The notes beneath the pieces are model-generated. The model saw only the letters and a program-made list of their open reading frames with translations, ran no database searches and was not told the DNA's origin. A DNA stretch of 48,706 nucleotides, filler included, from Jimgerdemannia flammicorona (lineage: Eukaryota), in the NCBI GenBank assembly GCA_003990765.1. It is 2 parts of 2 records of this genome, joined end to end, with 100 filler letters (N's around TTAATTAATTAA, not from the genome) between each part and the next. Parts side by side here need not be neighbours in the genome. Positions count along the whole stretch, not along the records: positions 1 to 24,305 come from RBNJ01000992.1; positions 24,406 to 48,706 come from RBNJ01000993.1. One strand, written 5' to 3'. This document shows, piece after piece, positions 16,174 through 41,645 of this stretch. Both the position numbers and the translations under genes were made by a program. How positions within the stretch are numbered: the first letter of the stretch is position 1; the number at the start of each line of letters is the position of its first letter.

Positions 16174-16204
<31 letters not shown>

Positions 16205-16557: not shown

Positions 16558-16908
16558 AGGTTGCAAGGAGGAGATTCTTTGAGTAGGAAGTGAGGACCCA
16601 AAAGATGGTCTGATCCACCAGCTTTATACATGAAAACGACAGTCTTGTAATATCCGAGCAAAGGAGAATGATGCCTCTGTGTCCAGCCGAGATTGCAATT
16701 GATTTACAGGATGTATCGTCTGTCTCTTGATCGGTTGGTGTCTACAGCCGCACATGAATCTCAGCCGCACAAGCTAGCTTGAAATTAAATTGTCATTCAA
16801 GCCTAAACCAATTCTCAGGTAGATGAGGCTTCGTTACATGCAACATCTGCGGCTATATTAAAATTTTGGTCGTTTGCAATTTTTCGAGACGTTAAAAATT
16901 AGAAAATC

Positions 16909-17853: not shown

Positions 17854-17869
17854 TGAAAAACTCAACCCA

Positions 17870-19910
17870 CTACTGTCTCTATCTAGGATCACTGTTTATC
17901 ACATGTATTTTCTAACTTAATCTTCACCAGCTTTCTTGAGTATCTTCTTGTATTGTATTGCCAAGAAGGTAGTAATCTGGGTCTTGCTTGCAGGCTTGTC
18001 TGACTAAATGGTAATGTTAGCTCTATCTTAAAGTAAGATAACTTTGTTCTTACATCAATCAATCAATCTATAGATTTTAATATATTAGCTAGGGTTTTTC
18101 TAAGATCAGATTATGATCTCCTAGTGATGTGATCTTGAAGTTTACTTATTCAGTATTTCTGAATCTTGATGGAAGGTTTGGCAGCAATTGACTCAATAGA
18201 ATATAGTATACTATCAGTAGTAACTACTCTATTATTCTTGAATATAAGTTTGATAAGAATCTTAAGATTTTTGATAAGATTCTGATTGATAAAGTTTTTA
18301 GCTACTCTTTTATCTAATCTTTTTCTTAACCAAACCTTTGAAAATAAGTATAGCTTGAGCTCAGTTTTTTAATAAATTTGCTACTTAATCTAGAAAGTTC
18401 TAGTAGGCCTAAAGTAGCTTAAAGAGATACTTATAGGTTTAAGTAGTCTTGAAAAAAATAAGCTAAGTTTTATTTAAGTAGAAAAAGAAGATATTCATAC
18501 AAGATCTGAAAAAAAGATCTAGAAGAATTTTGGAAATAAAGAGAACCCCCAAGAAAACAGTTTTTAACAAAAATAACTAATAGAATTTTACAATATTTTA
18601 AAAGATTCTATAACTAGCTAAGACAAGATACTTAGTGCTAAAAAAAAGACAAGAATATTCTAGTAAAGTTTGGGTATTAAGAGAGGATTTTTAAGCATTT
18701 GAAAAGTGCTAGAACATTGTAAAATATTTAAGAAAAAATAAGAAAAAACTAGAAAAAAGATGCAAAAACATATATACTATAACTAAGATATAATTAAGAA
18801 ATTATTATATCTCTCTTTTCTTAAGAATAAACATTCTCATTAAATTCTAAAATTATATAAAAATAGTTATACTTAACCAAATTTCTTAAACTTATATAAA
18901 CACTATTATGAAGTGTTGACCACTTCATATAAGATATGTAAAAGCTAAAAACTTAGTAGTTAAAAATTCAAACTACTCAGGAAAAACTTTTTATTATTCT
19001 GAGTAAGTTTACTAGTAATAGCTATATTTATATATGAAAGTATATCAAGCTAGTAAGTAGAGACAGAAATATATATTTTGCCTCAAAGTCTTAAATGAGA
19101 TCTTATATATTCTTGAGATTAACTAGTAGTTTTCAAATAATATTATAATCAGAATAGTCTATCTATTTGATCAGATATTCAGATCAATAGTAGCAGATTC
19201 TTTTGTCTAAGATTTTCTTAATCTCATACTCAATATAGTCTTTAATGATTATAGAGATAGAAGACTTGAGAATTTGACTAGAGTAAGATAGTAATTGGTT
19301 TCAGATCTTAAGGTGAGATATACATATAAAAGACTGAGTATATCTATATAATTTTAGATAGCTTGAGATAATAGGAGAATATAGAGCTGTTCTGTAATCT
19401 CAAAGGATCTAATAAACTTAGATTAAAACTTATTTGATAAATAGTTGACTTAAGATTATATCTTGAGATTCTCAGTAGACAATAAGACTTAATCATTAAT
19501 AGTATAGATAATATCATAGTATTTCTTATTAGCATATATACTTTGCTTGATATTATTGGGTCTTTTAAAGATTTATAGTAATAATTTTAAGTATTTTTTT
19601 TTTTTTTTTTTTTTTTTTTAACAGACTCAAAGTCCTGATTTTGAGTATTTTATCTATCTTATTTATAAGGTTCTTAGTAGTAGAGACTTGTATTTGACTG
19701 CTTTTCTAAAAGAAGACTAACTTGTAAAATCTCAAGATCTTGACTATAAAGTAGCCAAAAAGAGAAAAGACTAGTAGATAATTAGACTATATATTATTAT
19801 ATATAGATTAAATAGTGGTCTCAATTATCCTACTTATAAGAAATAGAGTTTTTAAGTATCCATAACAATTTCTTAGTTATATCTTAGTTATAGTATATTT
19901 TTATATCTTT
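17870..19910. mobile_element. Extremely AT-rich decayed repeat relic, family unidentifiable
   Basis: No CpG found in ~2 kb; TAG/CTA/TAA-rich; no intact ORF. Confidence 0.5.
19594..19635 (-). mobile_element. Micro retro-insertion (16-nt 3' end + A26) with TSD
   Basis: T-run 19594-19619 then AACAGACTCAAAGTCC, flanked by TAATTTTAAGTA (19582-19593) and TGATTTTGAGTA (19636-19647), which differ only by G>A. Confidence 0.6.
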
Positions 19911-19912
19911 TC

Positions 19913-22224
19913 TCTTGGATATAGGCAGGGAGTGCTGGAGGAATAAGAGGGTATATATATATTGGACAGGGGGCTTGAGGATGAGAATTGATTGGATTCT
20001 GATGGCCAGTTGCTGGGGCTTGGATGTTTGGAAGTCACTGGAGGTAGAATGGTATCCTTGGTTAAATTATTGGGGGCTTTTAGGACAGAGGCATTTTGGA
20101 GAGAGTGGGGATGGGCCTAGACATTAGTGCCTCAATTTCTCCTTATTAGATGATAAGATCTGGTAGGATGAGTGGGCTGCAGACATTCAACTGAGGGTAG
20201 AGTATTGGAGACAAGAAGGTGCCCCAGTTGGTGTTTGGTAGATATGGATGAAAGAGATGGCCAAGACCTACTGGAGTGAGGCTAGCAAGGAGGCTGGAAA
20301 ACAGAGGAGGCAATAGATGAGATAGGCTTCTAGTAGACTATCTAGACTCTTAGAGGATTGGGCAAGACTGGTAACATTAGAGGGAGAGGAGAATTGGAGA
20401 TCAATGAGGGCAAAAAGGGAGGTTGGCAAACTACAACAGATATTGTGAGAGGAGGAAGAGGTAAAGGTGCAGAGCTTGGCAGCATGGCTCCATTGGCAGG
20501 GTTTAGAAGAAGGGGAGAGACTCTCAAAGTATCTCATAAGAGCCCTTCAGGTGAGAAGGGTGCAGCAAAGGTAAGAGGGGGTGCTTGACTCTGATGGTAT
20601 ACTGGTACATAGTATACAAGATATTCTTGGATCTTTAAAGAAGCATTGAAGTGGATTGTGGAGTGAGAAGGAGAGTGGGGTAGATGCTGATGCTATTGAC
20701 CAAGCATTAGAGGATTGGTACCCCCTATAAGTAGATAGGTTGGGAGACTTGATATTGTCAGTACAGGAAGAGAAGATCTACCAGATTCTTGCCATAACAA
20801 TGCTGGATATAGTGTCTGGAGAGGATGGTTTGCCCTGGGACTTCTGAGAGAAGATGGTGGGGATCCCAGAAGTACTGGGTGAGATGACAACATTGTGTGA
20901 TTTGATTCTACAGACAGGGAGATGGGTGGGGAAATAAGATCTGAGGTTGGTGACATTACTTTACAAGAACAAAAGAAGGTGAGAAAACTGGAAGAACTGG
21001 AGGCTGATTATGCTGCTGGATATGGACAGAAAGTTGGTTACTAAGGTAGTGGTTGTGAGACTACAAAAGGTGGCCCAGTAAGTCTTGGGTGTTGAGTAGA
21101 GGGGCTTTATAGGAGGCCAGCTTATCAGTGATGACACAGCCTGGGTATATGGAGTTATTGAAGAGGTACAAGCTAGTAGATTGGATGGATGCCTGGTCTT
21201 TTTGGACCAGAAGAAGGCTTATAATTGGGTGAGGTGAGTCTGGCTGGCAAAAGTATTAAATAGGACTGGAGTTCCATACCAGTTCAGGTCAGCAATGGTC
21301 AGCCTACTGGAAGAGAGTAGGGCTGCACTCATGTGTAATAGATATAGAGGGGTAGCATTTCCCTCTGGATAGGGGGGTACTCCAGGGAGACCCACTGTCC
21401 CCCATTCTGTATGTCCTTTTCCTGAAACCCCTAATAGATAGAATTAGGCAGAAGATAGTAGGGCTCTCTATCTTTGGCATTGGGTGGAAAGTAGGGGTCT
21501 TTGTAAATGACATGGTAGTTGGACTGAGATCTATTGCTGATGTGGAGGAGCTTAAGAAGACAGTGGAGTGGTATGAGGAGAACTCTGGGGCTAAACTTAA
21601 TTGGCATAAGTGTGAAACAATGGTGCTAGGCAATGGTCTGGTAGGAGGAGAGGTTATTGGAACAATTGTCCCTACTGGTGAGGCAGTATAGTACTTGGAT
21701 ATCTATCTGTCAGTGTATGGGTCAGTTCTACCCAGGCTTTGGTGGGAGCAGCAAGTTGGAATCTGGGAAGAGGCCCTGCAGAGTTGGGGGGGGTTGCCAA
21801 TTATCTCTGTCTCGATTTTGAACATCTACTGGCTGCTGAAGTTATGATATCTGACTTATCATCTAGACTTCTCAGCCTGGGTAGTGAAGAGATTGATGAA
21901 GCTAGCCAAGGGGTGGATCTGGGCTGAAAGAAGGAGTCAGATCAGCTGGAAGGTCTTGTCCTTACTAGTGGTGAGTGGTGAACTTGGGCTGGTTGACTTT
22001 CCAAAAGAGGCTATACTGCTTGAGAGCATGGTGGCTGAAGAGAGCTATGGAGTTGAGAGGGGGAGATTGGGTTCCTCTATTGCAGAAGGTCTGAGAGATG
22101 AGGTCCTCACCAAGAGGCTTGACTGGAGATCTTCTATCTTTGGTTGGCCTTCAAAATACTGAACAATTGTGATACAAAGGCTTCTGGTGGGGGGGTGGCA
22201 GAGGGGGTACACTATATTGGAATT

Positions 22225-22294
<70 letters not shown>

Positions 22295-24305
22295 GAACTC
22301 ATAGTCTTATGGATTTTTATTGGAAGAGAACCTAGACTATATAGGCCAAAACCCGCCCCCACTATCCACCAAACAATATTCCCCTATTAACCTAAGCTAC
22401 TAAATTGTTCAGCAGTCCCACTGCTCCAACTATACCTGTCAAATACTGACTATATTGACCCCAATAATATAGACTAGACTTGTCTGCTCACTAGGGCTGG
22501 ATCATCATTTACACATGAGAGCACACCTATATGTTGGATCTAGCAGCACCAGGACTGAATAAAGAATAGCCCCCCGAACCCCCAAAAAAAGCCTGAGGTA
22601 AAGAAAAAACCCCCCAATCAACCAATAGAGAGCAAAGTAGATTTAAAGCAGATGAGTAAAGGACTTATACATAGCACCTTTCTCAAAGGACTTATACATA
22701 GGCTAGGGCCTGAAAAGATCCCACTTCCACTCCCTGAGCCTGCAGGCCTCGATCATGTTGCCATATCAGCTCTTGATTTCAGTCAGATACTGCCAAATGA
22801 GGAAGGTCCCACTCCCCAAGCCTGCAGGCCTCAATTGTGTTGCCATGTCAGCTCCTGGTTCCAGTTGGGTACAGTCAGGATGCTGGCCCCTGCACCACCC
22901 CACCCCCCACCAGCCAATCGAAAGGCCCTACTGAAATATTGTCCACCCCAGCCCTGATGACTGCCCCCAGTCTGGCACCCCACTAGTTCACCATTATCGC
23001 CCATCCTCCTATCTGTGATAGCCATCTCCCCTCCCATCCTGACAATACCTGAAAAGCAGTTACATATGCCAGAACCACACTTGCCAGGAAGCTCGCCAAA
23101 GCCAGAGGGCCCCACCACAGGCACTGAGGACCTACAGATAACCTACACTGAGCACTTGATGCCCAAGGTTGGCTGACTCTCTATGTAACCTGTGACGCAC
23201 TGAGGCTGTACCTTGTTGACAATAGCAAAAGGAAGAAGGCACCACACCAAAACCGATACACTCCAGATGTAGCCAAAGGTACCAGAAACTACAAAAAAGT
23301 GGAGAAGATACTGATCAGATACTAATAAAGGGGCAACTCATCACTATTGCCCTTCTCTCACTATGCCCATATAGGCACAGCAAACCAACCCAAGGTAGAG
23401 GGGGTACTGTATTGGAATTCATTGGTAGAGAAATGAAGGAGAGGTGGCTTGGGACCTGGCAATATAGAGATGAGACTGAGTATTGCTGGGTAGTATTCCC
23501 TTACTCGAGTTTGACATTAGTAATGGGATAGAATACCAAAGGAGACCAGGTCAGGATCTGTGGCCCAGTGGTTGGTAAGGAGTAGGAATTGGCAAAGAGT
23601 GAGACTAGCATGGTATTTGGGCCTGGAGTGCTGAGGTGAGAAGATGGATACCACTGAAGTACTGAGTGACTTGATGGTATATATTGAGGAGAAATGTAAT
23701 GCTCAACTACCACTCAGGTCACCTTATCAAGAGAGATTGCTTTGACTGTGAGGAGTGCCATAATGTAGGACAGAAAGGAGGATATATGCAGATGCCTGAA
23801 CATTGGCTAAGAGAGTACAAGATACTTAGTGACTTTTGGCAGACTGTTGGAGATCATTTGGGGGTAGGGTGCAGAAGAGTTGGCATGCAGGGGCAGTGGG
23901 AGGATTTGAGGAATAGACTAGTGGGGGGGTGGGAAAGGAATGGCTCACATTAGGCTAGGCTCTGGCTATTTGGGTGGGGTTGGCCAGCCACTGGCTATTT
24001 GTTTTTGAGAATGAGAGGAGACTGGGCTTAGGGACCTTGCTGCAGTAGCATAGCCTTATGGAAGACACCTTAACAGGCTGGTGGCTTGGTTGGAGGTTGC
24101 AGGGTGGTCAGAGGTATCGATTGGTAGAGAAAATCTATAGGCAGAGTGGGGAAAGGGTTGGAGTAGTGGGTAAGAAGATAGTCTTTGATTGAGAGAGAGT
24201 AGAGAGAGACTCTCCTATGGGGATTAGGTAGTGGGAGGAAATACTGTAAACTTATTAATAGACTGGTAATAAATGGTAGAGTCTAAGTGATTATAAATAA
24301 AAAAA
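19913..24305 (+). mobile_element. 5'-truncated, degenerate L1/Tx1-like LINE (ORF2: end of APE, RT, CCHC), copy A
   Basis: MRIDWIL (APE), NWRLIMLLDMDRKLVTK, FLDQKKAY, QGDPLSPILY, VNDMV (decayed ADD), C-terminal CEEC...PEHWLREYK; 3' end AATAAA...TCTAAGTGATTATAAATAAAAAAA runs into the gap. Confidence 0.88.
22227..23393 (-). mobile_element. ~1.1-kb poly(A)-tailed retroposed element without a recognisable ORF (SINE-like or LINE 3' UTR), inserted in LINE A
   Basis: T65 at 22227-22291; AATAAA about 20 nt before the tail on the minus strand; TSD GG(C/T)AGAGGGGGTAC(AC)T(A/G)TATTGGAATTCA at 22197-22226 and 23394-23421; LINE A ORF2 resumes after 23421. Confidence 0.8.
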
Positions 24306-24405
24306 NNNNNNNNNNNNNNNNNNNNNNNNNNNNNNNNNNNNNNNNNNNNTTAATTAATTAANNNNNNNNNNNNNNNNNNNNNNNNNNNNNNNNNNNNNNN
24401 NNNNN
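24306..24405. other. Artificial scaffold spacer: N44-TTAATTAATTAA-N44
   Basis: Exactly 100 bp; TTAATTAATTAA (24350-24361) places stops in all six frames, a known pseudomolecule linker. Contiguity across it is not guaranteed. Confidence 0.95.
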
Positions 24406-25921
24406 AAAAAAAAAAAAAAAAAAAAGAGATTGAAAGTTTTCCATTTATAGGACCCAAGGAGATATCCTCATATTTGTCAACTATACTTTCATCAGAAACA
24501 AGTATTTAAGAATAGAAAATAGAAAAATATTAGTCTAGATTTCTCCAAGTATCAATATAATGAGCAGGGCCACCAAGTTGGATTTTCATTGGAATATAGT
24601 ATTAAAAGGTATTTTACAAATAAGATATCAGATAGTATCTAACAATTAGGCAGAGATGATCAAAGGAAAAGGTGATTAACTTTGTGATACATATTCATAA
24701 TATCTAATAGTAACATTTGTTGAAATTTCAATTAACATTTCAATTTAACTCATAGCCTAAAATTATGGTAGAGATAGAGAGAGAAGATAAAATAGAAGAA
24801 GTGAGAACAATACAACTAATTATAGTAGATAATAAGATAATGAAATTTAAATATATATGTTACAATTAATTATATTTCTTAGGTATTAATATTTTATTAA
24901 ATATTTAGCCTTTCTAGATATATACCTCCTTTACACTAATCTCTGATGAAAAGGATTATATTATAGCTCTGGTTAAAAAAACAAATCTATTCTGCATACC
25001 TGATTTTGTAAAATTTACAGAGATATATCCTGATAAGAAATCTTTACAGAAAGTATTTCCTAGTCAATACAATTCCAATATATCTTCAAAATGATTCAAA
25101 TAAATTCAAAAAATCCACATTATATATAGATCTGTTATTCTACTAGAAGGTCATTGGTGGTATTGACTACTTGCATTTACTAGATAAACAACTATTATAT
25201 TGCAGCCCAAAATATATACTCTTCATAAAAATCATGAGAGCTGGTATGACCTAGTACTTTTAATAGTCAAAGCTTCTATAAAGATCATTCACACCACAGT
25301 GGTACAATATCCAGATAGGATATCACTTATTCATGAGTATCCTTTGGCCATTGGTATAACAGCACTTATATATCTAACTGGTCTACTAAGCAGTTAAGTT
25401 GTAGCTATTGTTAGGTAGCTTGGATGGCTACCTGGCCTCCATATTCAGTGATCCATAACAGATCCATAGCTTATTCTAGGCAAAATGAAGTGCAAATTAT
25501 TACTACCATAGGTAATATCATACACTTTTGTGATTTTGTCCAATAATATAAAGCTAATTTAAATATAATAGTACAAGGTGTCACATTTGATACATCATTT
25601 TATAGGTGTCTTAAATGAGTATACAGAGGCTATACCAGATGTAGCATCTGGTGTATCAATTGGGCTATAGATAACTATAACCAGTGTATTTCTTTTGGAC
25701 AGACTCCACTATATTTACTGATGGATAACTCTAATCAGAGGAGAGCATATCAATACTACAAACAGCACCCACATGATATACTATATAAAATTGATAAATA
25801 TACATTCACATAAGGCATATATATCTATAGATTATAACATATATCTGATTTACTATTACTAACATATGGGGAATATTTTGAGTACTTCAAACAATTTGTG
25901 ACCCAACATCAGATTGGAGAG

Positions 25922-27440
25922 TGTAAGAGGGTTGCTTTTTAGAGTAACTGTTACATAGTTCTGGAGGATTTTCTGGAAGTTCTGGATATTCTGGAAGACT
26001 ATTTTCTTAAGGTCAAGATCAATTTTGTATAGAGTATATCCTCTATGCTTATTGATTTCAAGATCAGGTTGACATCTCAACCAAAGTCCTTTTTCGGACT
26101 AGTTCTGGATGTTCAGGATTTTCCATATTTCAGGAAGTTTAAGAAACTAAGACCAGTTTAGTTGAATTAGCATATCACTACAGACAATACCTAATTAGGA
26201 AATTTCATGATGGGGTTAGGAGTAGGACCTAACAGGAAGCAGATTTACTTAAGAGTAGTTTGTGGGTTATTAAATAGGTTTATTTGCTATTCATGATATT
26301 GCTATACTAGGAGTAGTTGTATGAAGGGATATTGTAGGGAAGTATTCAGGAATGTTCTTATATGTTTGAGTCTGTTCAAGTCTGTTTAAGTCTATTAAGT
26401 CTGAGATTCTGAGGTCTGGAAGAGGGGGTATTTATACTAGTGAGGGGCTATCTAAACTATGCTAGATATAGATATAGCACTTAGTGCCTTGCTGAGTCAG
26501 AATGCAGTCACATAGTACAAATGTAATCTGACATATCAAGAGATCATCTGACTGCTGAGTCAGTTTACAGTCACATCATATAAGACTAATCTAACTATAC
26601 TATAACTGTTAGGCTATCTATAGATTTAGATACTGTCTAGATAGTCTTTGATGACATCACTATTGATGACATCATTGCTGGCAAAGTCTGAGCAGTTTTC
26701 TGACTTCTGATATTATCAGTTTCAAGGTATCATCACTTCTATCTCTTGCAAGATTAAGGCTGTCCTTGGTGGCAGTGGTTGTATAAGGATAACAGGTCTT
26801 GGTTCTCTTTTTTTTTGGCCTGCTGGCATATTTGCGAGAACTGGCCATTCTTATCTAGGGCGAGGGCTCCCAATATTACAGCTGGGGGTTCGAACCTCTT
26901 GGAAATGATATTTTCTGTAATCTGAGGCAATTTCTAGTAGTAATATCTATTACATGGATAGCTTGAGATTGGTTTCGATGATGTTGGCTTTCTTGAGTTC
27001 AGATGAAGCATCTGTTATTCTCCAATAGAGGTGATACAGATAGAGCAAACAGAGTTGTTTAAATGTGTTTTGCTTCTGCTAAGTAATGAGGTCTTGTATA
27101 GTTGTAGTATATCTTGGTCTTGAGTTTGATAAGTGTAGTTCATGAACCCTTGATAGATGAGATAGGGTCCTTCTTGTCTCAGTTTGAGTTTGGTACTTTC
27201 AGTTTCCTTTTGTAATAGTACAGTATACTAAACTAGTTATAGAGGTTCAGAGTTGGTCTTATAGTTATAGTACTTCTTCTGGTATTCTTATATCTTGGCA
27301 GTAGGTTCTCGTGTTTGCTGGCATATTTTGTGTAACCAGATGATCTCTTCAGTAACTTGTTTTATAGTCTTGCATGTGGTTTCCAAATTAGTTCTGAGGA
27401 TGATATGCAATTTTGGTGGCTTAGAGGTTGTACACTTATA
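25922..27440 (-). repeat. 3' LTR (1519 bp)
   Basis: Aligns along its length with 30836-32335; ends CTTATA (C>T of CTTACA); adjacent PPT AAGAAGGGGAGAGT at 27454-27441. Confidence 0.95.
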
Positions 27441-27455
27441 ACTCTCCCCTTCTTA

Positions 27456-30400
27456 GCTTTTGATGTCCTCATCGGAGTCTTCTAATTTGTTCTAGTGTTG
27501 TTGTACCATTTGGATGGTTCTTGTGACTATGTTTGTTGAGGATTTGTTCAACTTTGTACTCTTCTTAGTCATTGATAATGACAGGTACAGGTGGTTCTGT
27601 AGTTTGGTTCAGAAATGTGTCTCAGACCTTCTGGAGTAATGGTCTGATATGGCTGTCAACTTTGGAAAAGTCTTCTTCAGAGTTCTCAGGTTCTCCTTTG
27701 AATGGACAGATGGAGATAATGAAGAGAGGACATTTCTTGGCCAATTTCTTGAGCTATAGCTTGTTGATGTGGGTGATCTTTGATCTGGGGTCACTAGAGC
27801 TAAGTGGGTCCTTTTCACCTTATAGTTTAAAGTTGTGGCATCCTTTCTTGATGGTCAGAGAATGGTTTACCCAATTGATCATGAGGTTTTCTTATTTTAA
27901 CCATGGAGTTCTAAGGATAATTTTATTGTCTAGAAGTGGTATGATCTGGAGGGTAATATGTACTTGGTAGTTACCAATTCAGAAGGGTAGATTGTGGACT
28001 TCCTTACTAATGACATGGGAGGTTCCATCAGCTGTAACAACTGCTTGAGTTTGTTATATCAGAGAGGTGAAGACCTTGAGTCTATTGGCTGTTTCTTCAT
28101 TGATGAAGTTGCCTGAGGCACCACTGTCTATCATAATCTTGACAGGTGCTCAGTTGACAAAAGCTTGAAGTATAAGCAGTTTGTCTGATCCAATGGTAGT
28201 GATTTCAGTTATAGGAGCTTTCCTTCTGTTGGTTCTTCTTTGAGCCAATTCATTGACACAAGAGAAGCAATCATCAATTATTCGGGAAGAGTATATTCCA
28301 ATATCATGGGGGCATCAGCTACTAGGTACATATCTATCTTTGATTTTCTTGTAGAATTATTCTTCTTTGTTCATAGTAGGTTGGACTGGGGCCTTGTTTG
28401 ATGAGCCAAATCCTTTGGATCCTTAGATGGTAGATAGTAGTTCAGGGACTTCCTTGACTATCAGAGTTAACTCAATTTTCTCAAATAGGATCTAGACAAT
28501 GCAGAAACCAATAGAGATCTTGAAGGGTATCCAACTATGGTTTCAGATGAGGACAATAATTTTGCCTGTATAATCTTCATCAATGACTCCTCCTTCTACT
28601 GAGAGTCCTTTCAATGTCAGGTTGCTGTGACAGTATATCCTTCCAATATGTCCTTCAGGGACTTGGATGCTGATTCCTATATAGACTTGCTTGACTTCTT
28701 GGTTGAAAACTGTAGCTTCTTCAGCTGCATACAGGTCATATCTAGCTGCCTTTTGACTTCCTTTGATTGGGGCCTTAGCAGTTTGCCTTAACTTGACAAA
28801 GTCCAGTATTCTGGTTATCAGATTATTGAGGTAGTGTAGAGTAGTAACAGTTGCTCATATTACTATTTGGGGTTTTCAGTTGGGGCAGGCACTGGCCATA
28901 TGTCCTGTCTTTCAGCAATAGAAGCATGCTCCACTTCTTCAAAGTTCATTCCTTTCTCCTTCAGTGAGTTTCTTAAAGGAACTTAGCTGGGTGAGTTCAT
29001 GATTTCTGGGTGTCTATAAGATAGATATTGAGGGAGCTTGGGATGCTTCATGCTTGGGTTCTTCTTTTTTGGTTCAAGTTTTTTTCTTATTGTTGAATTG
29101 TCTTTGGGGCAGAATTGGTCCAGCTGTTAGAATTCACTTGACCATAGTCTTGATTCTTGCCAGGCACTATTGTTGGTGATTGCAACCAACTGGGTGGCCT
29201 TGTTCTCAGATTTTTCTAGTAAGCCATTCAGATAGGGTATTGAATAAATGATCTGCTCTTATACCATTTCATGCTTCATCATTGGCAATATATCTTAGGC
29301 CAATGGTGTTCAGGAGTGACTTGAGTTTCATACAGAAGGTTTTGAATTCTTCTTTACTATGTACATCGAATTTGAGATTATGGAGTTTGACTTGAGATTC
29401 AGTGATTATAGTTTTGCTGCAGTATTGAGCAATCATGAGTTGTTTTAGTCCAGGAGCTGCAGGATGGGCTCCATATTCTAGAGCATTATTTGCTGCATTT
29501 TGGGCAACTACTGTAGGTTGGGTGTCCTATGTGAGGGGTTTTTCAGAAAGGGTTTACCACTATTCTTCAGCAGGTCCTCAGAAGAATATAACAACTCATC
29601 AGACATAGGCTGTAGTAATAGCAAAGAGTTGTTCCAGAGTGTGGTCTTGATTGTTTATTAGAAGGCAGTTAGCAACTTGCTCATTGGTCCATTGATTGGC
29701 CTCAAAGTTGGTGTCAACTACACTAATAAAGCTTTGAACTTCTTGTGCAGTACCATTGAAGGTAGGTAGGCTCAGATTTTTGGTAGATCAGATCTGTTTG
29801 GCTAAGGCAGTAATAGTTGCTGCCATTATGGCTACCTGGGCTGTGAGGTCTAGAATTTGTTGGTTTGCCATATTATTTACTGGAGGTGGTTGGACTGCTG
29901 GTAGTGGTGTTACAGGTACTACTTGAGGTACTGGTGCAGAGTGTAATGGGGTTCTTTGAGTCTGTGTAAGTTGCTGGAGTAATAGTTGTGGGTCTAGAGT
30001 AAGGGCTCAATAGGTAGTTGTCTGTTGCTATATATGTGTGTTCTGGCCTAATGGAGGTGCATCTCCTTCAGTAGTATATCCAGGATCAAATTTACTGAGA
30101 TACTCCTTCTCCTCTTCAGTTTGGTCCCCATATAGTTGGGTTTGCTCAGCATCAAAGTAGACAGAATCAGTTGTATATCTGATTTCAGAAGGACTTAATT
30201 CAAAGTCAAGTTCTGGTTTGGTATTGGTTTCAGGTTCAGGTAGAGCTGTAGCAGGACCTACTTCTGATTCAAGGTCGAGTAGTTGATGAAGAATTTCTCT
30301 TGCTTCTTCTTTAAGAATATGGCAGGCCTTACTGTTCTGGAATTGGTAGTATAATGTGGTCTTGATCCTAGTATGGTGAAAGTCAGTAGAGTTGAGCCAC

Positions 30401-30796
30401 TTGGCTATAGAGGCTTGGGCTTCATGAGGAACTAAGGCTAGAAAGACTGCTGATGGTTGTCCTAGGTTGCTCAGATTTGTGGAGCTGACAAAACTCTTGT
30501 TGAGAAGAGTAAAGAAGGCTTCAATAAGACCTTCTTCATCTTGACTTGCTGGGTATAGTGCAAGGAGTTCAGTAAATAAGGTTTTGCTTATTTGCTAATT
30601 TAACTGGAGTATTTCTTTCTTTGAATGAAGTTTGTCCCACTTATTGCAGATGTGGAGGTCAAATTGTCCTTGTATGTCAGGTTCAATTCTCTCCAGATTG
30701 TCAGATGGTTCAGGATAAATTCCAGTTCAGAGGTTGGGCTTTATACCAACTTGTAGGAATTCTCAGAGGGATTTTGTAGTGGAGATAAGAAAGCAT
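27456..30796 (-). pseudogene. Gag (CCHC knuckle)-dUTPase-aspartic protease-truncated chromodomain polyprotein
   Basis: One frame from the knuckle to the end, broken only by nonsense substitutions: CFYC*KTGHMASACP (28926-28885); dUTPase AARYDLYA / GRIYCHSN / GGVIDEDYTGK / CIV*I / *GSKGFGSS (28800-28399); protease IMIDSGASGNFI (DSG 28128-28120) and IILRTPWL; then PPVPVIIND*EEYKVEQILNKH. No RT, RNase H or integrase core. Confidence 0.9.
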
Positions 30797-30820
30797 CTTG
30801 AAGTGGAATTGGATTGTAAA

Positions 30821-30832
30821 CTACTACTACCA
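30821..30832 (-). promoter_or_regulatory. Primer-binding site (mutated, probably tRNA-iMet type)
   Basis: TGGTAGTAGTAG 3 nt after the 5' LTR; consistent with TGGTAGC... after C>T/G>A changes. Confidence 0.6.
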
Positions 30833-30835
30833 AGT

Positions 30836-32335
30836 TGTAAGAGAATTGCTTTTTAGAGTAGTTCTGGAGGGTTTTCTGGAAGTTCTAGATATTCTAAAAG
30901 ACTGTTTTCTTAAGATCAAGATCAATTTTATATAGAGTACATCCTCTATACTTATTGATTTCAAGATCAGGTTGACATCTCAACCAAAGTCCTTTTCAGA
31001 CTAGTTCTGAATGTTCAGGATTTTCTGTATTTCAGGAAGTTCAAGAAACTAAGACCAGCTTAGTTGAATTGGCATATTGCTACAGACAATATCCAATTAG
31101 GAAATTTCATAATAGGGTTAGAAGTGGGACCTAATAAGGAGCAGATTTACTTAAGAGTAGTTTGTAGGTTATTAAATAGGTTTATTTGCTATTTATAATA
31201 TTGCTATACTAGGAGTAGTTGTATGAAGGGATATTGTGGGGAAGTATTCAGAAATGTTCTTGTATATTTAAGTCTGTTCAAGTCTGTTTAAGTCTATTAA
31301 GTCTGAGATTCTGAGGTCTGGGGGAGGGGGTATTTATACTAGTGAGGGACTATCTGGACTATACTAGATATGGATGTAGCACTTAGTATCTTGCTGAGTC
31401 AGAATGTAGTCACATAGTACAAGTGTGATCTGATATATCAAGAGATCATCTGACTGCTGAGTTAGTTTACAGTCATATCATATAAGACTAATCTAACTAT
31501 ACTATGACTATTAGACTATCTATAGATTTAGATGCTATCTGGGTAGTCTTCAATGATATCACTATTGATGACATCATCACTGGCAAAGTCTGAGCAGTTT
31601 TCTGACTTCTGACATCATCAGTTTCAAGGTGTCATCACTTCTATCTCTTGCAAGATTAAGGCTGTCCTTGGTGGCAGTGGTTGTACAAGGATAACAGATC
31701 TTGGTTCTTTTGACCTACTGGCACATTTGTGAGGACTGACCATCCTTGTTTAGGGTGAGGGCTCCCAATGTCATAGCTGGGGGTTCGAATCTCTTGGAAA
31801 TGATATTTTCTATAATCCAAGACAATTTCTAGTAGTAATATCTGTTATGTGGATGGCTTGAGATTGGTTTTGACAATGTCAGCTTTCTTGAGTTCAGATG
31901 AAGTATCTGTCATTCTCCAACAGAGGTAATATAGATAGAGTGAATAGAGTTGTTCAAATGTGTTTTGCTTCTGCTAAGTAATGAGGTCTTATATAGTCAC
32001 AGTATATCTTGGTCTTGAGTTTGATAAGTGTAGTTCATGAACCCTTGATGGATGAGATAGGGTCCTTCTTATCTTGGTTTGAGTTTGGTACTTTTAGTTT
32101 TCTTTTGTAATAGTACAGTATACCAAACTAATTATAGAGGTTCAGAGGCAGTCTTATGGTTGTGGTACTTCTTCTGGTATTCTTGTATCTTGGCAGTAGG
32201 TTCTCATGTTTGCTGACATATTTTGTGTAACCAGATGATCTCTTCAGTAACTTATTTTATAGTCTTGCATATGGTTTCCAAATTGGTTCTGAGGATGATA
32301 TGCAATTTTAGTAGCTTGGAGGTTGTATACTTACA
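30836..32335 (-). repeat. 5' LTR (1500 bp)
   Basis: TGTAAG at 30836, CTTACA ending at 32335; minus-strand TATAAATACCCC near 31330-31338 (also near 26425-26436 in the other LTR). Confidence 0.95.
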
Positions 32336-32555
32336 GAGAGCTACCTGAAAGCTTCATATAGATAAGGTAGCATACATTTGATTTATGTATCTTTGATATT
32401 CTATACTTTGCGAAGTATACATGGTAGAGATTTCGAAAAAGTCTCTAGGTAACAGACAGACCAATTATGGTATCATCATAGTTAGCAAATACCATACTCT
32501 TCATACATAGTAATGGGGAATTCAAACCTACTATTTACTGAAAAGTACATCAACA

Positions 32556-35500
32556 GATGCTTTTCACTGGTATCATTTGGGTGATACAAGACTCAGACAA
32601 CACTTTTTACAATGTTTTTGATATTCAATAACTATCAACATAAATGGCAACAATTGAACTAGTGAGTGTACTGGCCAGGGGGATAGTGGTACCTTTGGCT
32701 GACAGTAGGTGGGGAGGAGGGGAGATGGTTTGGGGATGCCAGGGGCCTTAATGGCTAGCTGAGGCCCTGGTGGTGGAGAGAGGGGCAGCCTGAGGCAGAG
32801 AGGAGGGGAGAGGTCAACCTTTGCTGACAAGATCAGAATAGGAAAGATGGCCTCTGGTCTGGATGATTGGTTGGGCCTGGGGAAGGCGTCGAGAGCTGCT
32901 GCTGAAGGATAGGGAGGTGTGCCCAGGGGAGTTTCAGGTAGTAGAGGGGGAGCAGGAGTAGGGGCTGGAGATGTGACTATTGATGGGGCTGTGACTGGGG
33001 ATCTGGCAAAAAATCCAGATGTGATGGCAGTTGATAATTCAGGACAGGGGATGGGCATGAGGCCTGGAGACCTGGCAGATGGAGTGACAGGCATGGTGTT
33101 GGCCCCGTTACTCAAGAAGTTGAGGTCAGAATTCATGGTCACAATGAGTTTCAGGGGCTTAGCAGTGATGGTGAGGATGATCTTAGGGCTGGTGGTGTAG
33201 GAGACAAAGAAAGTAGCTTTGGTGAAGTTTTTGAAGGGGAAGGAAGGGGTCAAGATGGGGTTTGAGGAAGAAGATGCCTTGCTGACAGCCTTGGAGAAGG
33301 GGGTGACAGTTGGTGGGGTTGTGGTCCCTATGGCCAGGTACATATACTGAGACCCCCAAGTGGTACAGTTGATAGTGTTGGATCTCCCTATATTGTTGAA
33401 GGAGAGGACTAGAGAGTTGGTTGTAGAGGTAATCAAGGAGTATGGAGAGATTGTAGATGTTGGGTTCAAGGTCTGGGAGGGTATGGAGCTCTGGACTGGT
33501 GATGTCGATGTCAGGATAAGGCTGGCTGGAAAGGAGAATATAGCGAAGATAAGGGACTGGCCAGTGATGCTGAGGTGGGGACTGGTGGAGTGTAAGGTCA
33601 CAAGGGTGAAGAGGACCCAGGAGGAGGAGAAAGACCAGTTGGAGGTTCTGAAGGATCTGAAAGGAGTGGTTGCGAGGAGGAGATTGGCCTGGAAGGAGTT
33701 TGAGGCCAGGATGGTGGTGGGGGAGGTAGATGGGAAGAGGGTCCAGATGGAGAGAGAGACCTGGGAGAAGATGCAGGGAAGGAAAATCCAGAAGGAGCTG
33801 CTGGCGAAGTTGAATAGGGGTAGAGCCAGCAGAAGTGCAGGGGAGGGAGATGTAGGATTGCAGAAGAGTGCCTGGGCTGTGGGGGGTGAAAGGGCCCATA
33901 GTGGGGCTCAGACTGGATTGGAGGAGGAGAGGGAAGGTGGCATGGAGGTAGATGCAGAAATGAGTGAAGATGTATACTCTCAGTATAGTGTCCTGGGTGG
34001 AGCTGAGGGGGAGGAGGAACTGCTGGATGTGCTAGATGAAGAGTAGGATAAGTTAGTGAGGAGGAGTGCTCTGGTGGACCCCAAGGTGGATGGGGGGCAA
34101 ATCATCCAGAGTATGGCAGAGGTGGTGGATGAGGAGAAGTGGATGTGGAAGACCCTGGAAGGGGTAGTGGCAGAGGAGCTGAGGGGAGAGGATTTCAGGG
34201 TTATGGAAGAGAGGTATTGGGAGGAAATCCTACAGGAGGAGAAGGTGTTGAGGAAGATGAGGAACAAGATCCTGATTGTCCTCCTGGAGTTGGTTGAATA
34301 TCAAGTCGATGATCAGAGGGAGGAGGAACTTAGGGGGATTGTGAGTGACCAGGCATTATACTTGTGGAACTCAAGGAAGGGACTGGAGAAGTAGTGCACA
34401 GTCTGCATAGACTACTAGTTAGAGATGGAGGTAGTGGATGGGGTGGAATGTCAGGAAATCTTAGAGATGCTGGATGCTCAGGCTAATGCAGAGGGTGACT
34501 TGGAAGCTGAATGGTGCTTGGATCTGGCTGGGGATGAGATGAGCATGGAATACTAGGCTGGGGTCCCAATTGCAACATTCTTTCAATATGAACAGTATAA
34601 CTAGAATATTCTCTTTGAACATAAATAGGTTATGGGGGGTAGCTAGGAGGAAGTATATATTTGGATGGCTAAAGGGACTGGATGCAGACCTCTTTTTGTT
34701 GCAGGATGTTCATTATGAGACAGATGTGGATTTATAGGATTGGACTAAGAAATGGGGGGGGGGCGGCAGTATGGAGGGGGAGGGTGGGTATTCTCATTCA
34801 GAAAGGGATGGGGGACATTGGAGACATTGGTCATTGGGGGTCTTGGGTGGTGTGGAGAGTGTGGAAGAGGCCTGGATAGGGCTCGTTGACAGTTGAGTCT
34901 TGTTACTGCCCAGCTGAGAGAGGGGAGAGAGTGGATTGGATTTGCAGGTTGAAAGAGTCTGGTGTCTTGGGTGAGGTTGGGTTGGACTGCCTGGGGGGTG
35001 ACTTCAACATGGTATGGGATAAGGAGATGGACAGAACAGATGGAGAGAGAGGTATGTGGAGTGAGAGTAGTGGGTTGGAGGACTGGTTGGAGACAGAGAG
35101 GTTGAGTTCTTTAGTAGACTCAGGAAGACAGTTTTGGGACAATCAGCAGGTATACACTCACTGGGTGATAGGGCTGGGCTCTAGGATTGATTGGGTTTTG
35201 ACAGCAGTGCTGGGGAGTAGATGTCTGGATGGTGCTAGAGGTAGTTTGATATCCATGGTCTGATCACTGGGAGCTGCTAGGAGGGGGGAGGTTTGGGGGA
35301 AGTGAGGATGGGCCTGGATATTGGTGACTAAATTCTGCCTTGTTAGAGGATGGGGTTTTGTGGGAGGATTGGGAAAAGAAGGTTATTGGGAATATTGGAA
35401 GGTGGCAGGAATGAGGCCTGGGAATTGGGGACTACTGGAGGAGACTGAAGGCAAATGCTCAGGGGTATTAGAGGGAAGCAGGGAAAGGAAGGTGTGCTCA

Positions 35501-37929
35501 ATGATGATGGTGGGTGCTGTGGGCCTTGCAGTGTCTGGCAGCACTTATGGGGAGATGGGCAGGTGTGCTAGAAGATGGGGAGGTGACTGACTAGCATATT
35601 GTGAGGATCTGAAAGAAGGTGGAGGAGCTTAAAGGAGTGTTATGAAGAGAGAAGAAGGTGAGGCTACAGGAGATAGTGGCCCAGCTGTGGTAGCAGGGGC
35701 TTGAGGAGGGGGAGAGGCCTACTAGGTTTTTATCATGGTTGTTATAAGTACGATAAATGAAGCAGTGATGGGAGGGAGTCCTGGATGCAAATGGCAAGCT
35801 GGTGGTGAGGACTATAGCGATTCTGGGTTTACTGCGAAACTGTTGGAAGAATCTATGGAGTGAGGAGGAAGGAGGAGTGGATGCTTTGGACATTAAAAAG
35901 CAGCTGGGAGATTGGCACCCAAACCCTGTGATGGGCCTAGGGTCTTTGGGGGACCCAGTGAGTAGAGAGGAAATCTGCAAGGTTGTGGCCTCGATGAGTA
36001 AGGGGATATCTCCAGGGGAGGATGGACTTCTCTGGGATTTTTGGAAGAAGATGGCTGGAGTGAGTGAGGTGCTAGAGGAAATGACTGCTATGTGTGGTGA
36101 GATTCTTCAGTCTGGTACTTGGATAGGGGGCCAGTGTCTAGGGCTAGTCTCCTTGCTCTACAAGAATAAGGGGAGGTGGGAAGATTGGAAGAACTGGCAG
36201 CCAATCATGCTACTTGACATGGACCACAAACTGGTGACAAAGATCTTGGTGATGAGGCTGCAAGGAATCGCTCAGCAAGTGCTTGGTGTGGAGCAGCATG
36301 GATTTGTCAGGGCTGGTTGATTTGTGATGGGACAGCTTGGGTACATAGTGTGATTGAAGGTGCCCGGGCTACAGGGGTGGATGGATAGTTGGTATTTCTG
36401 GATCAGGAGAAGGCATATGATAGAGTGCAGAGAATCTGGCTAGAGGGAGTGCTGAAATGGATTAGTATTCTCCTGGGGTTCTGAGGATCATTGATCAGCC
36501 TCTTGGAGGACAGTCAGGCTATGTTGGTCATCAATGACTATAGGGATGTGGTCTTTCCCCTAGGTCATGGGGTATCACAAGGTGACCCCTTGTTACCCAT
36601 ATTGTATGCCCTCTCCCTGGAGCTCCTACTGGACAGGATTCAGTATTGAATCAGGGGTTTGGACATTCTAGGGATAAATTGGAAGGTGGGGGCCTTTGCT
36701 GATGATATGGTGGTTGGACTGGACTCCTTGGTGGATGTGGGGGAGTTATGGCAGTCTGTGGAATGGTATGAGAGGGGATCTGGTGCTAAACTAAACTGGC
36801 ACAAATGTGAGACTCTAGTGCTGGGTGCTGGAATTATTGGTGGTGATGTAATTGAGATGGTGGTGCCAGCTGGTGAACCAGTGTGTTATTTGGGGATCTA
36901 CTTCTTGGTGTTTGGATCTCTTCTTCCCCATGCATAGTGGAGCCAACAACTTCTGGAGTGGGGAAATGTTCTGCTGTGATGGGGAGGTCAGCATATGTCC
37001 TTAGCTGGAAAGGTGATGGTACTGAATGTGTATTAGATACTAAAGCTGTAGTATGTGGGGTATCATTTGGATTTTCTGACCTGGGTGGTCAGAGGGCTGT
37101 TGAAGATGGCGAGATCATGGATCTGGGGAGGGTAGTGAAGTCAGGTGGGTTGGGAGGTGCTCACACTACCTATGGAAAGAGGTGGGCTGGGTTTAGCTGA
37201 CTTTACTAAGTGGCTTCATTGTTTAAGAGCTTGGTAGTTGAGGAGGGTAAGTGAGCTGAGAGGTCAGGAGTAGGTGCCACTCATGCAGAGGGTGTAGGAG
37301 GTTCAGTATTTCTCTTGTGGTGACTCTGGTAATCTGCTTGCGATGGTGGCCATAGATGGGAGCAAAAGGATACAGTTTACAGGCTTCTGGTGGGGGGTGG
37401 TGGATAGCACTAAGAAAATTGGACTTTGGTGGTAAGGTGATGAAGCAGAGGAGAATTGGGGACCGTGAATGTGGTGGTGGGACAGGCTTCTACTAGGTGG
37501 TGTTCCAGTGGAGGATTTTCAACTTAGAGAGGATATGGAGTATACCCTTGGCTGGGCTCTGGCCATGTAGGTTGGGTTAGCTGGGCATTAGGTATATGTA
37601 TTTGAGGAGAGACAGCAGGTTGGGGTTGGGGACAAGGTGGCATATTAAGAATGGTTATTACTGGACATTTTGAATGGCTGGTAGTAAGGGTGGGGGCCAG
37701 GTAAGGGGAATCACAGGGGTTTAGTGCAGTGTATCTCCCAGAAGAGTGGCAGGAGGATTTGGGTAGTGGGTGACTGGGCTGTGCTCAGGCAGGGGGAGGT
37801 TAAGAGGGGAGGGATGGATCTACAGAGCATTGGTTGAGAGTTTGGGGTGACATTGTATTGTTAGAATTATAGACAGCAGTAATAAAAGGGCAGTCCAAGT
37901 GACTATAAAAAAAAAAAAAAAAAAAAAAA
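32556..37929 (+). mobile_element. Near full-length degenerate L1/Tx1-like LINE, copy B (ORF1 + APE-RT ORF2)
   Basis: TSD AAAAGTACATCAA(C/T)A at 32541-32555 and 37926-37940; poly(A) tail; ORF1 in one frame ~32630-34556; ORF2 from ATG 34588: FSLNINRL...LLQDVH, LGGDFN, SRIDW, SDH, SPGEDGL, NWQPIMLLDMDHK, FLDQEKAYDRV, QGDPL, FADDM. Confidence 0.93.
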
Positions 37930-38511
37930 GTACATCAATATTCAAAATATTGCAAGGGTGAGTAGATATATATGAAATTCAATTCTTACTAGACCTCATG
38001 CTGCTATGTGTAAGCCTTACAATTGCATCACAAGACGAAAACCAAATACTACCAAAAATATAGTTAATATTAGCAAAATTAACAAGCTATGGCATGGAAT
38101 AAGAACAATTACCAGACTGATACCAACTGAATAGGCATATTGCACTATTACAGATATGAGCATAAGCTTGATTGTATATCATTTTTAAATATAAAAGTTT
38201 GATCAGCTTTTGTAACCATTTAATTATTGATAGCTATACTTTACTATTTATCAACATATGTATGTAGTTTATTTATTATATAATATATACCATTTTTTTT
38301 TTTTTTTTTTTTTTTGTTTTATATAATATATTATAAAATAGATTATAATATTAAAACTTGTAAAATTTTATCTTATTAAATACTGAATTAAAATCTATTT
38401 GTCTATCTTTATAAAGCATATATCTTAAAACTGTTACAAACAAATTCTATTATTATTAAACTCTATGAATGTGTTTGCATGACAATGTATTTTATTATTG
38501 TTGTTGACGAT

Positions 38512-39422: not shown

Positions 39423-39457
<35 letters not shown>

Positions 39458-41240: not shown

Positions 41241-41645
41241 GTGGCTGTTCTGGTGGAGGATGTGGGGTTGGCTGGCTGTTCTGGTGGAGGGGTGGAGGTT
41301 GCGCGGGTGTGAATGTTTTGTTTGGGGTGTTTAAATGGGCCTTGGCGCGTGGCTTGGCCAGGGGTGAACGGGTGCCCAATTTTGGGGACCAGCAACACGT
41401 GCGATAACCCACATAATTAATCCGTAATTTCCCTAAGTGGTGGGAATGAGTTAGTTCCATAACACCGAAAAGGGCTTCCTTCTTTTATATGTCCTCGCGA
41501 CATTAATGGCGTAAATGACCTCAGCTGGCAATTGGCGAAGCGAACAACACAGCTACGCCAAATTCTGGAGACATTGGTGCAAGATTGTGAGTTTGATCAC
41601 ACTCTCAGGAGAACCGAATTCCTGACTCCTCACCTCAACAACCTA

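Follow-up and report, generated by a model that had tools for sequence, protein, structure and literature searches.

Described systems of C-to-T mutation in fungal transposons

RIP in Neurospora crassa and other Pezizomycotina is RID-dependent and has a second branch that depends on DIM-2 and H3K9me. In Neurospora its context order puts CpA first, and its mutations cluster on the same strand. Transposons of Pucciniomycotina, for example Microbotryum, are hypermutated at TpCpG, and CG-methylated transposons lose CpG by decay in many basidiomycetes (those with DNMT1/DNMT5), in animals and in Rhizophagus. Fungal mutagenic genome defence is now viewed as an ascomycete, or at most a Dikarya, trait. 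According to part of PMC8016269, Dim2 of Zymoseptoria tritici promotes C>T mutation in repeats, a process termed "mitotic RIP-like". Where this enzyme is functional, 5mC in TEs follows the order CG (43-61%), CA (10-22%), CC (3-8%) and, far behind, CT (<0.01%), and more than 98% of the Dim2-dependent mutations fall at CA, with CG spared (same part of PMC8016269).

Composite RIP indices give hints of RIP-like mutation beyond Dikarya in Zoophthora radicans (Entomophthorales, Zoopagomycota), as stated in an extract of PMC11105155. For Mucoromycotina, a passage of PMC8647823 that cites another paper states that no RIP signatures had been detected, and a 2025 kingdom-wide screen is said to have met RIP-like k-mer signatures in Ascomycota only (a passage of PMC12543289). 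The passages of PMC9963178 on the enzymes identify DIM-2-like homologues in Endogonales and Glomeromycota, and report RID-1 only from Pezizomycotina. A RIP-like defence is not described in the early-diverging lineage studied here.

The CpG-depleted block and its host

We analysed a window of 48,706 nucleotides, filler included. In a protein search, an exon of its TAPT1 gene matched a Jimgerdemannia flammicorona protein at 99% identity, followed by proteins of Umbelopsis, Bifiguratus and Mucorales (69-81%); Dikarya first appeared at rank 105, with 58% identity. These matches place the host in Endogonales (Jimgerdemannia-like, Mucoromycota). The earlier note had taken it as apparently outside Dikarya, and had named a Pezizomycotina ascomycete as the host that would speak against its reading; TAPT1 gives Endogonales instead. 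The same gene has a U12-like GTATCCTT 5' splice site and a branch-site-like motif, in agreement with the U12 introns claimed for this genome. The J. flammicorona genome is given as ~240 Mb with >77% repeats in part of PMC10386755.

The CpG-depleted transposon block spans 17826..38507 (GC 40.4%) and contains 44 CpG. Its CpG o/e is 0.057, against 1.03 in the left flank (1-17825) and 1.07 in the right one (38508-48706), and every 1-kb bin within it lies between 0.00 and 0.15. Our recount over 17870-38500 (20,631 bp, GC 40.2%) gave exactly the 44 CpG that had been estimated for this interval. The edges against the CpG-rich genes are as sharp as had been claimed, within tens to hundreds of bases. 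On the left, the final CpG is at 17825 and the next only at 21813; on the right, a single CpG at 38036 precedes the dense CpG that starts at 38508. CpA and TpG are slightly in excess over the block (o/e 1.11) and not depleted, and the classical RIP indices therefore miss most of it. For the whole block, TpA/ApT is 0.96 and the substrate index, (CpA+TpG)/(ApC+GpT), is 1.33; both indices are satisfied within the block only at 17826-19950. They are likewise positive at 48001-48706, which is AT-rich, CpG-normal and outside the block, and so they are not specific.

The block reads as a nest of retrotransposons. Its first segment (17826..19950) is AT-rich (26% GC, 0 CpG) and lacks a recognisable coding remnant; no repeat partner was found for it, including in purine/pyrimidine space, and it is possibly an old, heavily mutated relic. 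A 5'-truncated non-LTR (LINE) element follows on the + strand (19951..22227, 1 CpG), with RVT_1 at ~20989-21626, one frameshift within this domain, and 65% identity to 36015-36928 in a second LINE. The CpG-poor segment at 22291..24305 (10 CpG, o/e 0.09), to which we assigned no identity, includes an 82-bp tandem unit (22727-22877). The assembly gap (24306..24405) lies in a poly-A run and consists of 44 N, TTAATTAATTAA and 44 N; the two halves of the block may not be neighbours. Beyond it, an AT-rich segment (24406..25921; 29% GC, 0 CpG) ends in GAGAG, the left target-site duplication (TSD) of an LTR element.

This LTR element lies on the - strand. Its LTRs, in element orientation the 3' LTR at 25922..27440 (6 CpG) and the 5' LTR at 30836..32335 (1 CpG), have TG..CA ends, a purine tract AAGAAGGGGAGAG adjoins the 3' LTR, and the right copy of GAGAG stands directly after the 5' LTR on the + strand (32336-32340). 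The internal region (27441..30835) keeps one frame across all its 1132 codons, encoding in - orientation a gag zf-CCHC (28879-28929), a dUTPase (28399-28779) and an aspartic protease (27841-28191). Together, the LTR ends, 5-bp TSD, in-frame gag and protease and polypurine tract are those of a Ty3/gypsy LTR retrotransposon. The internal region yielded no domain of RT, RNase H or integrase; these look deleted and, judged by domain content, the copy is therefore non-autonomous. By eye only, the tail of the internal region is chromodomain-like. The sense strand is A-rich and G-poor, and the frame carries 27 stops in the 654 codons of 27730-29691.

The second LINE (32600..37930, + strand, 5' end approximate) has RVT_1 at ~36356-36899 and a poly(A) at 37907-37930, and its relatives have Exo_endo_phos and RVT_1. 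G makes up 37% and C 13% of its sense strand; over 460 codons, the RT part is interrupted by 16 in-frame stops, and it contains at least one frameshift. Both this LINE and the LTR element thus bear out the earlier claim of nonsense changes with few indels. An AT-rich spacer (37931..38507; 23% GC, 1 CpG) leads from the poly(A) to the first CpG-rich gene sequence.

Spectrum, direction and context of the mutations

We aligned the LTRs (25922-27440 and 30836-32335) over 1500 columns and found 134 transitions, one transversion and three indel blocks (9.0% divergence). The claim that LTR substitutions are transitions thus holds over the full alignment but for this one transversion. The mutated terminus was also seen (CTTATA in the 3' LTR against CTTACA), whereas the TSD pair CAACA/CAATA, said to be hit as well, was not found as a TSD: both sides read GAGAG, intact. 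As a control we used a tandem duplication on the + strand, 70 bp outside the block, whose two ~350-bp copies (16909-17260 and 17476-17798, together 16909..17798) are similarly divergent (9.3% over 323 aligned positions). These copies differ by 20 transitions and 10 transversions, retain 15 and 13 CpG, and show no avoidance of CpT (7/37). The difference in Ts:Tv between LTR pair and control is highly significant (Fisher P = 9e-8), the strongest counts in this analysis coming from one LTR pair and one element.

Whether a cytosine changed depends on the base 3' of it. With the G/C state taken as ancestral (GC>AT assumed, sites hit in both copies being invisible), the LTR pair has mutated C at 28 of 35 CpG (80%), 74 of 217 CpA (34%), 26 of 126 CpC (21%) and 5 of 229 CpT (2%). 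This corresponds to hit probabilities per copy of 0.67, 0.21, 0.115 and 0.011; CpA and CpC were mutated 10-15 times as often as CpT. The effect of the 3' neighbour is very strong (chi2 = 140, P = 4e-30) and that of the 5' neighbour is not significant (P = 0.15); within CpG, TCG was hit in 11 of 18 cases and ACG, CCG and GCG in 100%. The earlier note had described mostly CpA/TpG>TpA changes plus CpG. CpA is indeed the largest class (74 of the 133 transitions with classifiable context), but per site CpG leads. Non-CpG sites account for 105 of these 133 transitions. Both strands were affected (85 G/A and 49 C/T differences), and under a null that preserves context and composition the mutations form same-strand clusters of moderate strength in each LTR copy (22 runs for 60 mutations, P = 0.048; 24 runs for 74, P = 0.006).

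The direction of change was given by an intact relative, P0122, which carries dUTPase, protease and RVT_1 and is 85% identical to the window copy over 295 residues. Of the 44 amino-acid differences in this comparison, 42 reflect GC>AT change in the window copy (40 single GC>AT, 1 double GC>AT, 1 mixed, 1 AT>GC and 1 transversion), with the nearest codon chosen for each P0122 residue, which slightly favours single changes. Eleven stop codons of the window copy face Q or R in P0122. The contexts were CpA in 22 cases, CpG in 12, CpC in 8 and CpT in 1, i.e., 31 of 43 were non-CpG, and on the sense strand 26 changes are C>T and 17 are G>A, which shows that here, too, neither strand was spared.

Soil metagenome copies of the family gave a similar spectrum. 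Contigs at least 80% alike, from four runs and placed on 25800-30835, have ~9-16 transitions per transversion at their variable places (622:40, 740:80, 708:73 and 507:48), counts that are not independent since places recur across runs, and that may mix species and alleles. Among the best-supported 40 of 1136 variable places, the window has A/T at 32 where the other copies have G/C. Three independent comparisons (LTR pair, intact protein relative, metagenome copies) therefore reveal a mutator that turns C into T and is restricted to the transposon block.

Methylation, duplication and other explanations

Target choice in the block fits the CpN preference of a DIM-2-type enzyme, CG > CA > CC >> CT, if mutation is taken as a proxy for methylation. 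Because the order G > A > C >> T at the 3' base is how a DIM-2-type DNA cytosine-5 methyltransferase reads DNA, we propose that the elements were held in methylated heterochromatin, and give a probability of about 0.6 to a RID-free, methylation-linked hypermutation of transposons by a DIM-2-like enzyme. This enzyme would lay CG and non-CG 5mC, with CG maintained, and methylated or enzyme-engaged cytosines would become thymine, either through spontaneous 5mC deamination with poor repair or through the action of an enzyme, at a rate far above that of ordinary mutation. Elements would then be mutated intensely after integration, on both DNA strands, with the chance of each C set by its 3' base. 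The outcome would resemble RIP (stops, CpG loss, AT drift) in transposons only, sparing adjacent genes and requiring no RID. We infer the involvement of a methyltransferase and of 5mC from the context match and two papers. The per-copy probabilities mirror the rank, and roughly the proportions, of 5mC in Z. tritici as given in part of PMC8016269, and in both cases the changes are TE-confined and more than 95% C>T. However, CpG is hit hardest here and CA there, where enzyme and 5mC were measured; the parallel is therefore with the methylation profile of Z. tritici and not with its mutator.

The locus has much in common with Neurospora RIP: C:G>T:A changes in transposon DNA, on both strands and in same-strand clusters, stop codons, an AT shift and spared adjacent genes (134:1 against 20:10; 42/44). 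A true RIP-like defence would recognise duplications by homology, probably at a premeiotic stage in the zygospore, and a processive enzyme would mutate one strand per episode; LTRs and family copies would be hit as repeats, beyond mere methylation. Slow decay would hardly reach a Ts:Tv of 134:1, the effect ends at the block edges, both LTR copies show same-strand clusters, and CpA>TpA has the highest count of any class in the LTRs and against P0122 (22/43). Yet we consider this doubtful: CpG is preferred (80% against 34% for CpA) and CpT avoided, unlike the Neurospora order, and the classical indices are unmet over most of the block (substrate index 1.33). The 1.5-kb LTR pair was hit whereas the 350-bp tandem duplication beside the block was not, although the latter may be below a length threshold, and intact or less mutated relatives survive (P0122 and the G/C-bearing metagenome copies). 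The host is a mucoromycote, and RID is reported absent beyond Pezizomycotina in the passages of PMC9963178. The >77% repeats of J. flammicorona (part of PMC10386755) also argue against an efficient duplication-triggered system. A homology-triggered RIP-like defence in Endogonales that uses a DIM-2-like methyltransferase and no RID is, in this specific form, a slightly more tentative proposal still.

Passive decay of CG-methylated transposons, through DNMT1/DNMT5-type maintenance and spontaneous 5mC deamination with nothing special outside CpG, is unlikely. It shares with the block the TE-restricted loss of CpG and gain of TpG/CpA (o/e 1.11), as well as genes that look unmethylated, with CpG o/e near 1. 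Many LTR differences are CA/TG pairs, in which a single ancestral CpG mutated on one strand in one LTR and on the other strand in its partner, and the TEs of Rhizophagus irregularis are heavily CG-methylated (part of PMC8647823). The block differs by its large non-CpG component (105/133 and 31/43), where CG-only decay would limit the excess to CpG, and by a strict 3'-neighbour rule in which CpA and CpC far exceed CpT; one transversion in 1500 bp indicates a background too low to supply these changes. As in Microbotryum, repeats of a fungus that is no ascomycete show a CpG-centred, RIP-like C>T bias, but here a 5' T is not required and CpA and CpC are also hit. Compared with Zoophthora, for which an extract of PMC11105155 gives dinucleotide indices only, the evidence in this mucoromycote is alignment-based, directed and context-resolved.

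AID/APOBEC-like deamination of single-stranded cDNA during reverse transcription, before integration, would fit retroelement targets, a dUTPase that could counter cDNA uracil and the A-rich, G-poor sense strand of the LTR element. It is very improbable, since the 5' neighbour is irrelevant and the 3' one dominant, both strands were hit, and the 135 differences between LTRs of one insertion imply changes after integration. That there was no mutator, only native element composition, chance or an assembly artefact, is scarcely credible. The LINEs do have a strong, native-looking G excess and the block spans an artificial-looking gap, but the two LTRs, which started out identical when the element inserted, have diverged by 134:1 against 20:10 in the control, P0122 supplies the direction, and independent public runs contain mutated and less mutated states.

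The earlier suggestion of a RIP-like or methylation-driven defence in an early-diverging lineage stands in its hedged form, given the Endogonales host and the three C>T comparisons. The locus provides alignment-level, directed and context-resolved evidence of an intense, transposon-restricted C-to-T process in Endogonales, with a target rule that points to a specific enzyme class. If the homology-triggered reading were true, DNMT-driven mutation of repeats from C to T would be older than the divergence of Mucoromycota from Dikarya, or would have had two separate origins; the Endogonales process would have escaped surveys that rely on CpA k-mers and RIP indices because CpG>TpG/CpA changes replenish the "substrate" dinucleotides. 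If the process is genome-wide, CpG-led variants can go unnoticed in RIP screens that rely on composition, methyltransferase-linked mutagenesis would have a deeper origin in the fungal tree, and this would help to explain how elements are disabled in a genome of ~240 Mb with >77% repeats (part of PMC10386755).

Composition and content of the CpG-poor block

The window holds a central block nearly free of CpG between two CpG-normal flanks bearing genes. The observed/expected (o/e) CpG ratio is 0.057 in the block (17826–38507), versus 1.03 and 1.07 in the flanks, and per 1-kb bin it is 0.79–1.30 outside and 0.00–0.15 in every bin of 18001–38000. Our recount of the interval 17870–38500 gave exactly the 44 CpG reported in the earlier note. 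At the left edge the final CpG lies at 17825 and the next one at 21813; at the right edge there is a single CpG at 38036, and CpG is dense from 38508 on. [quoted passage not shown] We dropped the classical RIP indices as a discriminator in the window, because the AT-rich stretch at 48001–48706 has normal CpG (o/e 1.22) yet is RIP-positive (TpA/ApT 1.22, substrate index 0.83). RIP calls made only from indices would thus be unreliable in the J. flammicorona genome. The gap at 24306–24405, within a poly-A run, consists of 44 N, TTAATTAATTAA and 44 N. This spacer, palindromic and with stops in all frames, resembles an artificial joiner between contigs, and the window's two halves may therefore not be genomic neighbours.

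The flanks encode a homologue of the CENP-A chaperone Scm3 (5603–7711), a LysM and chitin-binding protein (14415–15272) and a C2H2/Zn2Cys6-like factor (39441–41330), all on the minus strand and with CpG o/e near 1. The Scm3, LysM/chitin-binding and Zn2Cys6 domains are consistent with a fungus. The TAPT1 exon at 10382–10831 (minus strand) has 99% identity to a J. flammicorona protein, followed by matches in Umbelopsis, Bifiguratus and Mucorales (69–81%), and the first Dikarya appear at rank 105 (58%). These matches speak against a Pezizomycotina ascomycete, the host that the earlier note had named as incompatible with its proposal. The TAPT1 (DUF747) intron at 11081–11188 (minus strand) looks U12-type, with the 5' splice site GTATCCTT and the branch-like motifs TCCTTGAC and ACCTTATC upstream of TAG. 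Taken by itself, the U12-like 5' splice motif has 7 matches in the window against 3.6 expected, which is no significant enrichment.

Self-comparison of the window gave one long direct repeat (25922–27438 versus 30836–32333), corresponding to the LTRs of a Ty3/gypsy-like element on the minus strand. The LTR ends are TGTAAG...CTTACA, the left copy terminating in CTTATA in the LTR alignment; a purine tract adjoins the LTR at 27441, and the same 5-bp target-site duplication (GAGAG) is found on both sides of the element. The internal region (minus strand) keeps a single frame across all 1132 codons and contains zf-CCHC, dUTPase and aspartic-protease domains. The domain search found no RT or integrase domain in this region, and the copy is therefore non-autonomous. 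The dUTPase (28399–28779, minus strand, E = 2e-23) lies between gag and protease; given the proposed C-to-T defence, such an enzyme in a retroelement of this genome may merit attention.

Two LINE-type elements on the plus strand carry RVT_1 domains at about 20989–21626 and 36356–36899, the second ending in poly(A) at 37907–37930. Their sense strands (19951–22227 and 32336–37930) are 32–37% G and 13–14% C, with A and T nearly balanced. This extreme G excess is not explained by symmetric C>T change; the elements may be natively so composed, or a strand-biased process may be at work. Translation of the ORF1-like part gives a low-complexity protein rich in G, E, R and W. A 63-nt poly-T (22228–22290) directly follows the first LINE, where poly-A would be expected. 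Further long homopolymers lie at 19597–19620 and 38293–38315, and a T22/A15 junction at 39421–39457 in the CpG-rich flank. The AT-rich segments 17826–19950 and 24406–25921 (26–29% GC, zero CpG) have no recognisable identity. A search for heavily transition-mutated hidden repeats, using 32-mers in purine/pyrimidine space across the window, returned only the already known pairs. None of 27 stop-to-stop ORFs has a transposon domain, because the frames are interrupted by stops.

Mutation spectrum of the LTR pair

The two LTRs (25922–27440 and 30836–32335) differ by 134 transitions and one transversion in 1500 aligned columns. Both LTRs of an element start out identical, and the flanking duplication is unbroken, which means that the differences arose in place. 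We used as a control the tandem duplication just outside the block (16909–17260 versus 17476–17798), which stops about 30 bases short of the last CpG outside it. The control has diverged to a similar extent (9.3% versus 9.0% for the LTR pair), but with 20 transitions and 10 transversions and with its CpGs retained (Fisher P = 9e-8 for the contrast in transitions and transversions). The whole duplication (16909–17798) has a 540-bp period and a 24-bp indel, is CpG-rich and overlaps ORFs without Pfam match.

When the G/C state is assumed to be ancestral, the cytosines differing between the LTRs are 28 of 35 in CpG, 74 of 217 in CpA, 26 of 126 in CpC and 5 of 229 in CpT, a strong effect of the 3' neighbour (chi2 = 140, P = 4e-30). 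The 5' neighbour of the mutated C had no significant effect in the LTR pair (P = 0.15), and no effect of the base two positions 3' of it was seen there. Corrected for sites hit in both copies, the per-copy hit probability is 0.67 for CpG, 0.21 for CpA, 0.115 for CpC and 0.011 for CpT. The control shows no avoidance of CpT (7/37). Both strands were hit (85 G/A and 49 C/T differences), and hits on the same strand are clustered within each LTR copy (P = 0.048 and 0.006 against a simulation aware of context and composition). The evidence comes from a single locus, with one pair of LTRs and a single protein relative.

Direction of change and related copies

That relative, P0122, is an uninterrupted database protein with dUTPase, protease and RT (RVT_1) domains, 85% identical to the window copy of the gypsy-like element over 295 residues. 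Of the 44 differing residues, 40 correspond to a single GC>AT transition in the codon of the window copy, and the other four to one double GC>AT, one mixed path at a CpG, one AT>GC and one transversion. By context, the 43 window-derived changes are 22 in CpA, 12 in CpG, 8 in CpC and one in CpT. The LTR element copy has 27 stops in 654 codons (15 TGA, 6 TAG, 6 TAA). All 11 stops in the stretch aligned with P0122 are opposite Q or R (six CAA/CAG>TAA/TAG, three CGA>TGA, one CGA>TAA and one TGA opposite Q). The best long relatives of the LINE are just 25–30% identical (17 hits), too distant for codon-level direction. The two window LINE copies (65% identity, 188 transitions to 136 transversions) are different old lineages, and therefore uninformative in this respect.

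Parts of the LTR element are present in soil metagenomes and in an organism labelled A (shares of 0.06–0.20); the runs listed with such sequence include neither RNA nor any run of the organism itself. For four runs (X1, X2, X5 and X6; 3885, 868, 536 and 341 contigs), we aligned the contigs of 80% or higher similarity to 25800–30835. The summed tallies of transitions to transversions at variable places were 622:40, 740:80, 708:73 and 507:48, in runs that share variable places, and so are not independent tests, and with contigs possibly from several related fungi. Among the 40 best-supported of 1136 places, 32 have A/T in the window versus G/C in the other copies; six show the opposite arrangement, and the remaining two are A>T. 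Few indels occur among the metagenome differences listed. Short contigs of this family number in the hundreds to thousands in soil metagenomes of several studies, and 451 of those in X1 are at least 99% alike. Depth at the start of the LTR (25968–26303) is about 4–10 times that of the remainder of the element in the runs, which suggests many solo LTRs or related families. In JGI metagenome contigs, P0121 as protein query gave 239 pattern stretches, none confirmed by tblastn, and a 42-nt purine/pyrimidine-degenerate LTR pattern had no matches, hence no additional LTR pairs.

Candidate mechanisms

Native composition or an artefact fails to account for the pattern given the control duplication, the P0122 relative and the independent runs. 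Passive decay under CG-only methylation also fails, because 105 of the 133 LTR transitions that were classified, and 31 of the 43 changes of known direction, are non-CpG and follow a strict context rule. Editing of cDNA is contradicted by the strand symmetry, by the differences between the two LTRs of a single insertion and by the neighbour dependence, which is contrary to it. AID/APOBEC deaminases read the 5' side of the cytosine, and reading of the 3' neighbour is instead the logic of a cytosine-5 methyltransferase.

Against efficient triggering by duplication, as in Neurospora, stand the persistence of intact relatives, the unmutated small duplication beside the block and the more than 77% repeats reported for J. 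flammicorona in a passage of PMC10386755. The C>T conversion itself may be spontaneous deamination of 5mC in a slow-growing fungus whose repair is weak, or it may be enzyme-driven; the extreme excess of transitions and the same-strand clustering favour the latter.

RIP-like signatures are called unique to Ascomycota in a passage of PMC12543289, stated to be undetected in Mucoromycotina or Gigaspora in one of PMC8647823 (citing another paper), and given as absent from chytrids in one of PMC6572847. Early-diverging fungi are described as 6mA-dominated in part of a 2026 review (PMC13297926). For Endogonales and Mucoromycotina, our literature search returned no description of a signature like this. 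It would escape screens based on k-mers or indices, since CpG>TpG/CpA replenishes the CpA/TpG pool and since an AT-rich, CpG-normal stretch of the window scores positive on the indices as well.

The process targets integrated double-stranded copies on both strands, reading the base 3' of the cytosine. According to passages of PMC8016269, Dim2-dependent 5mC in Zymoseptoria tritici transposons reaches 43–61% in CG, 10–22% in CA, 3–8% in CC and less than 0.01% in CT, and Dim2 also increases C>T mutation in repeats. The mutation order in the window (CG > CA > CC >> CT), and roughly its proportions, match these levels. According to part of PMC9963178, a survey of 86 fungal proteomes, Endogonales and Glomeromycota have DIM-2-like homologues, and RID-1 is confined to Pezizomycotina. 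Given the 3'-neighbour logic, the match to Dim2 contexts and the homologues in Endogonales, the best reading is that a DIM-2-like system, whose enzyme we infer, would cause methylation-linked hypermutation of transposons in heterochromatin, with a RIP-like outcome but without RID.
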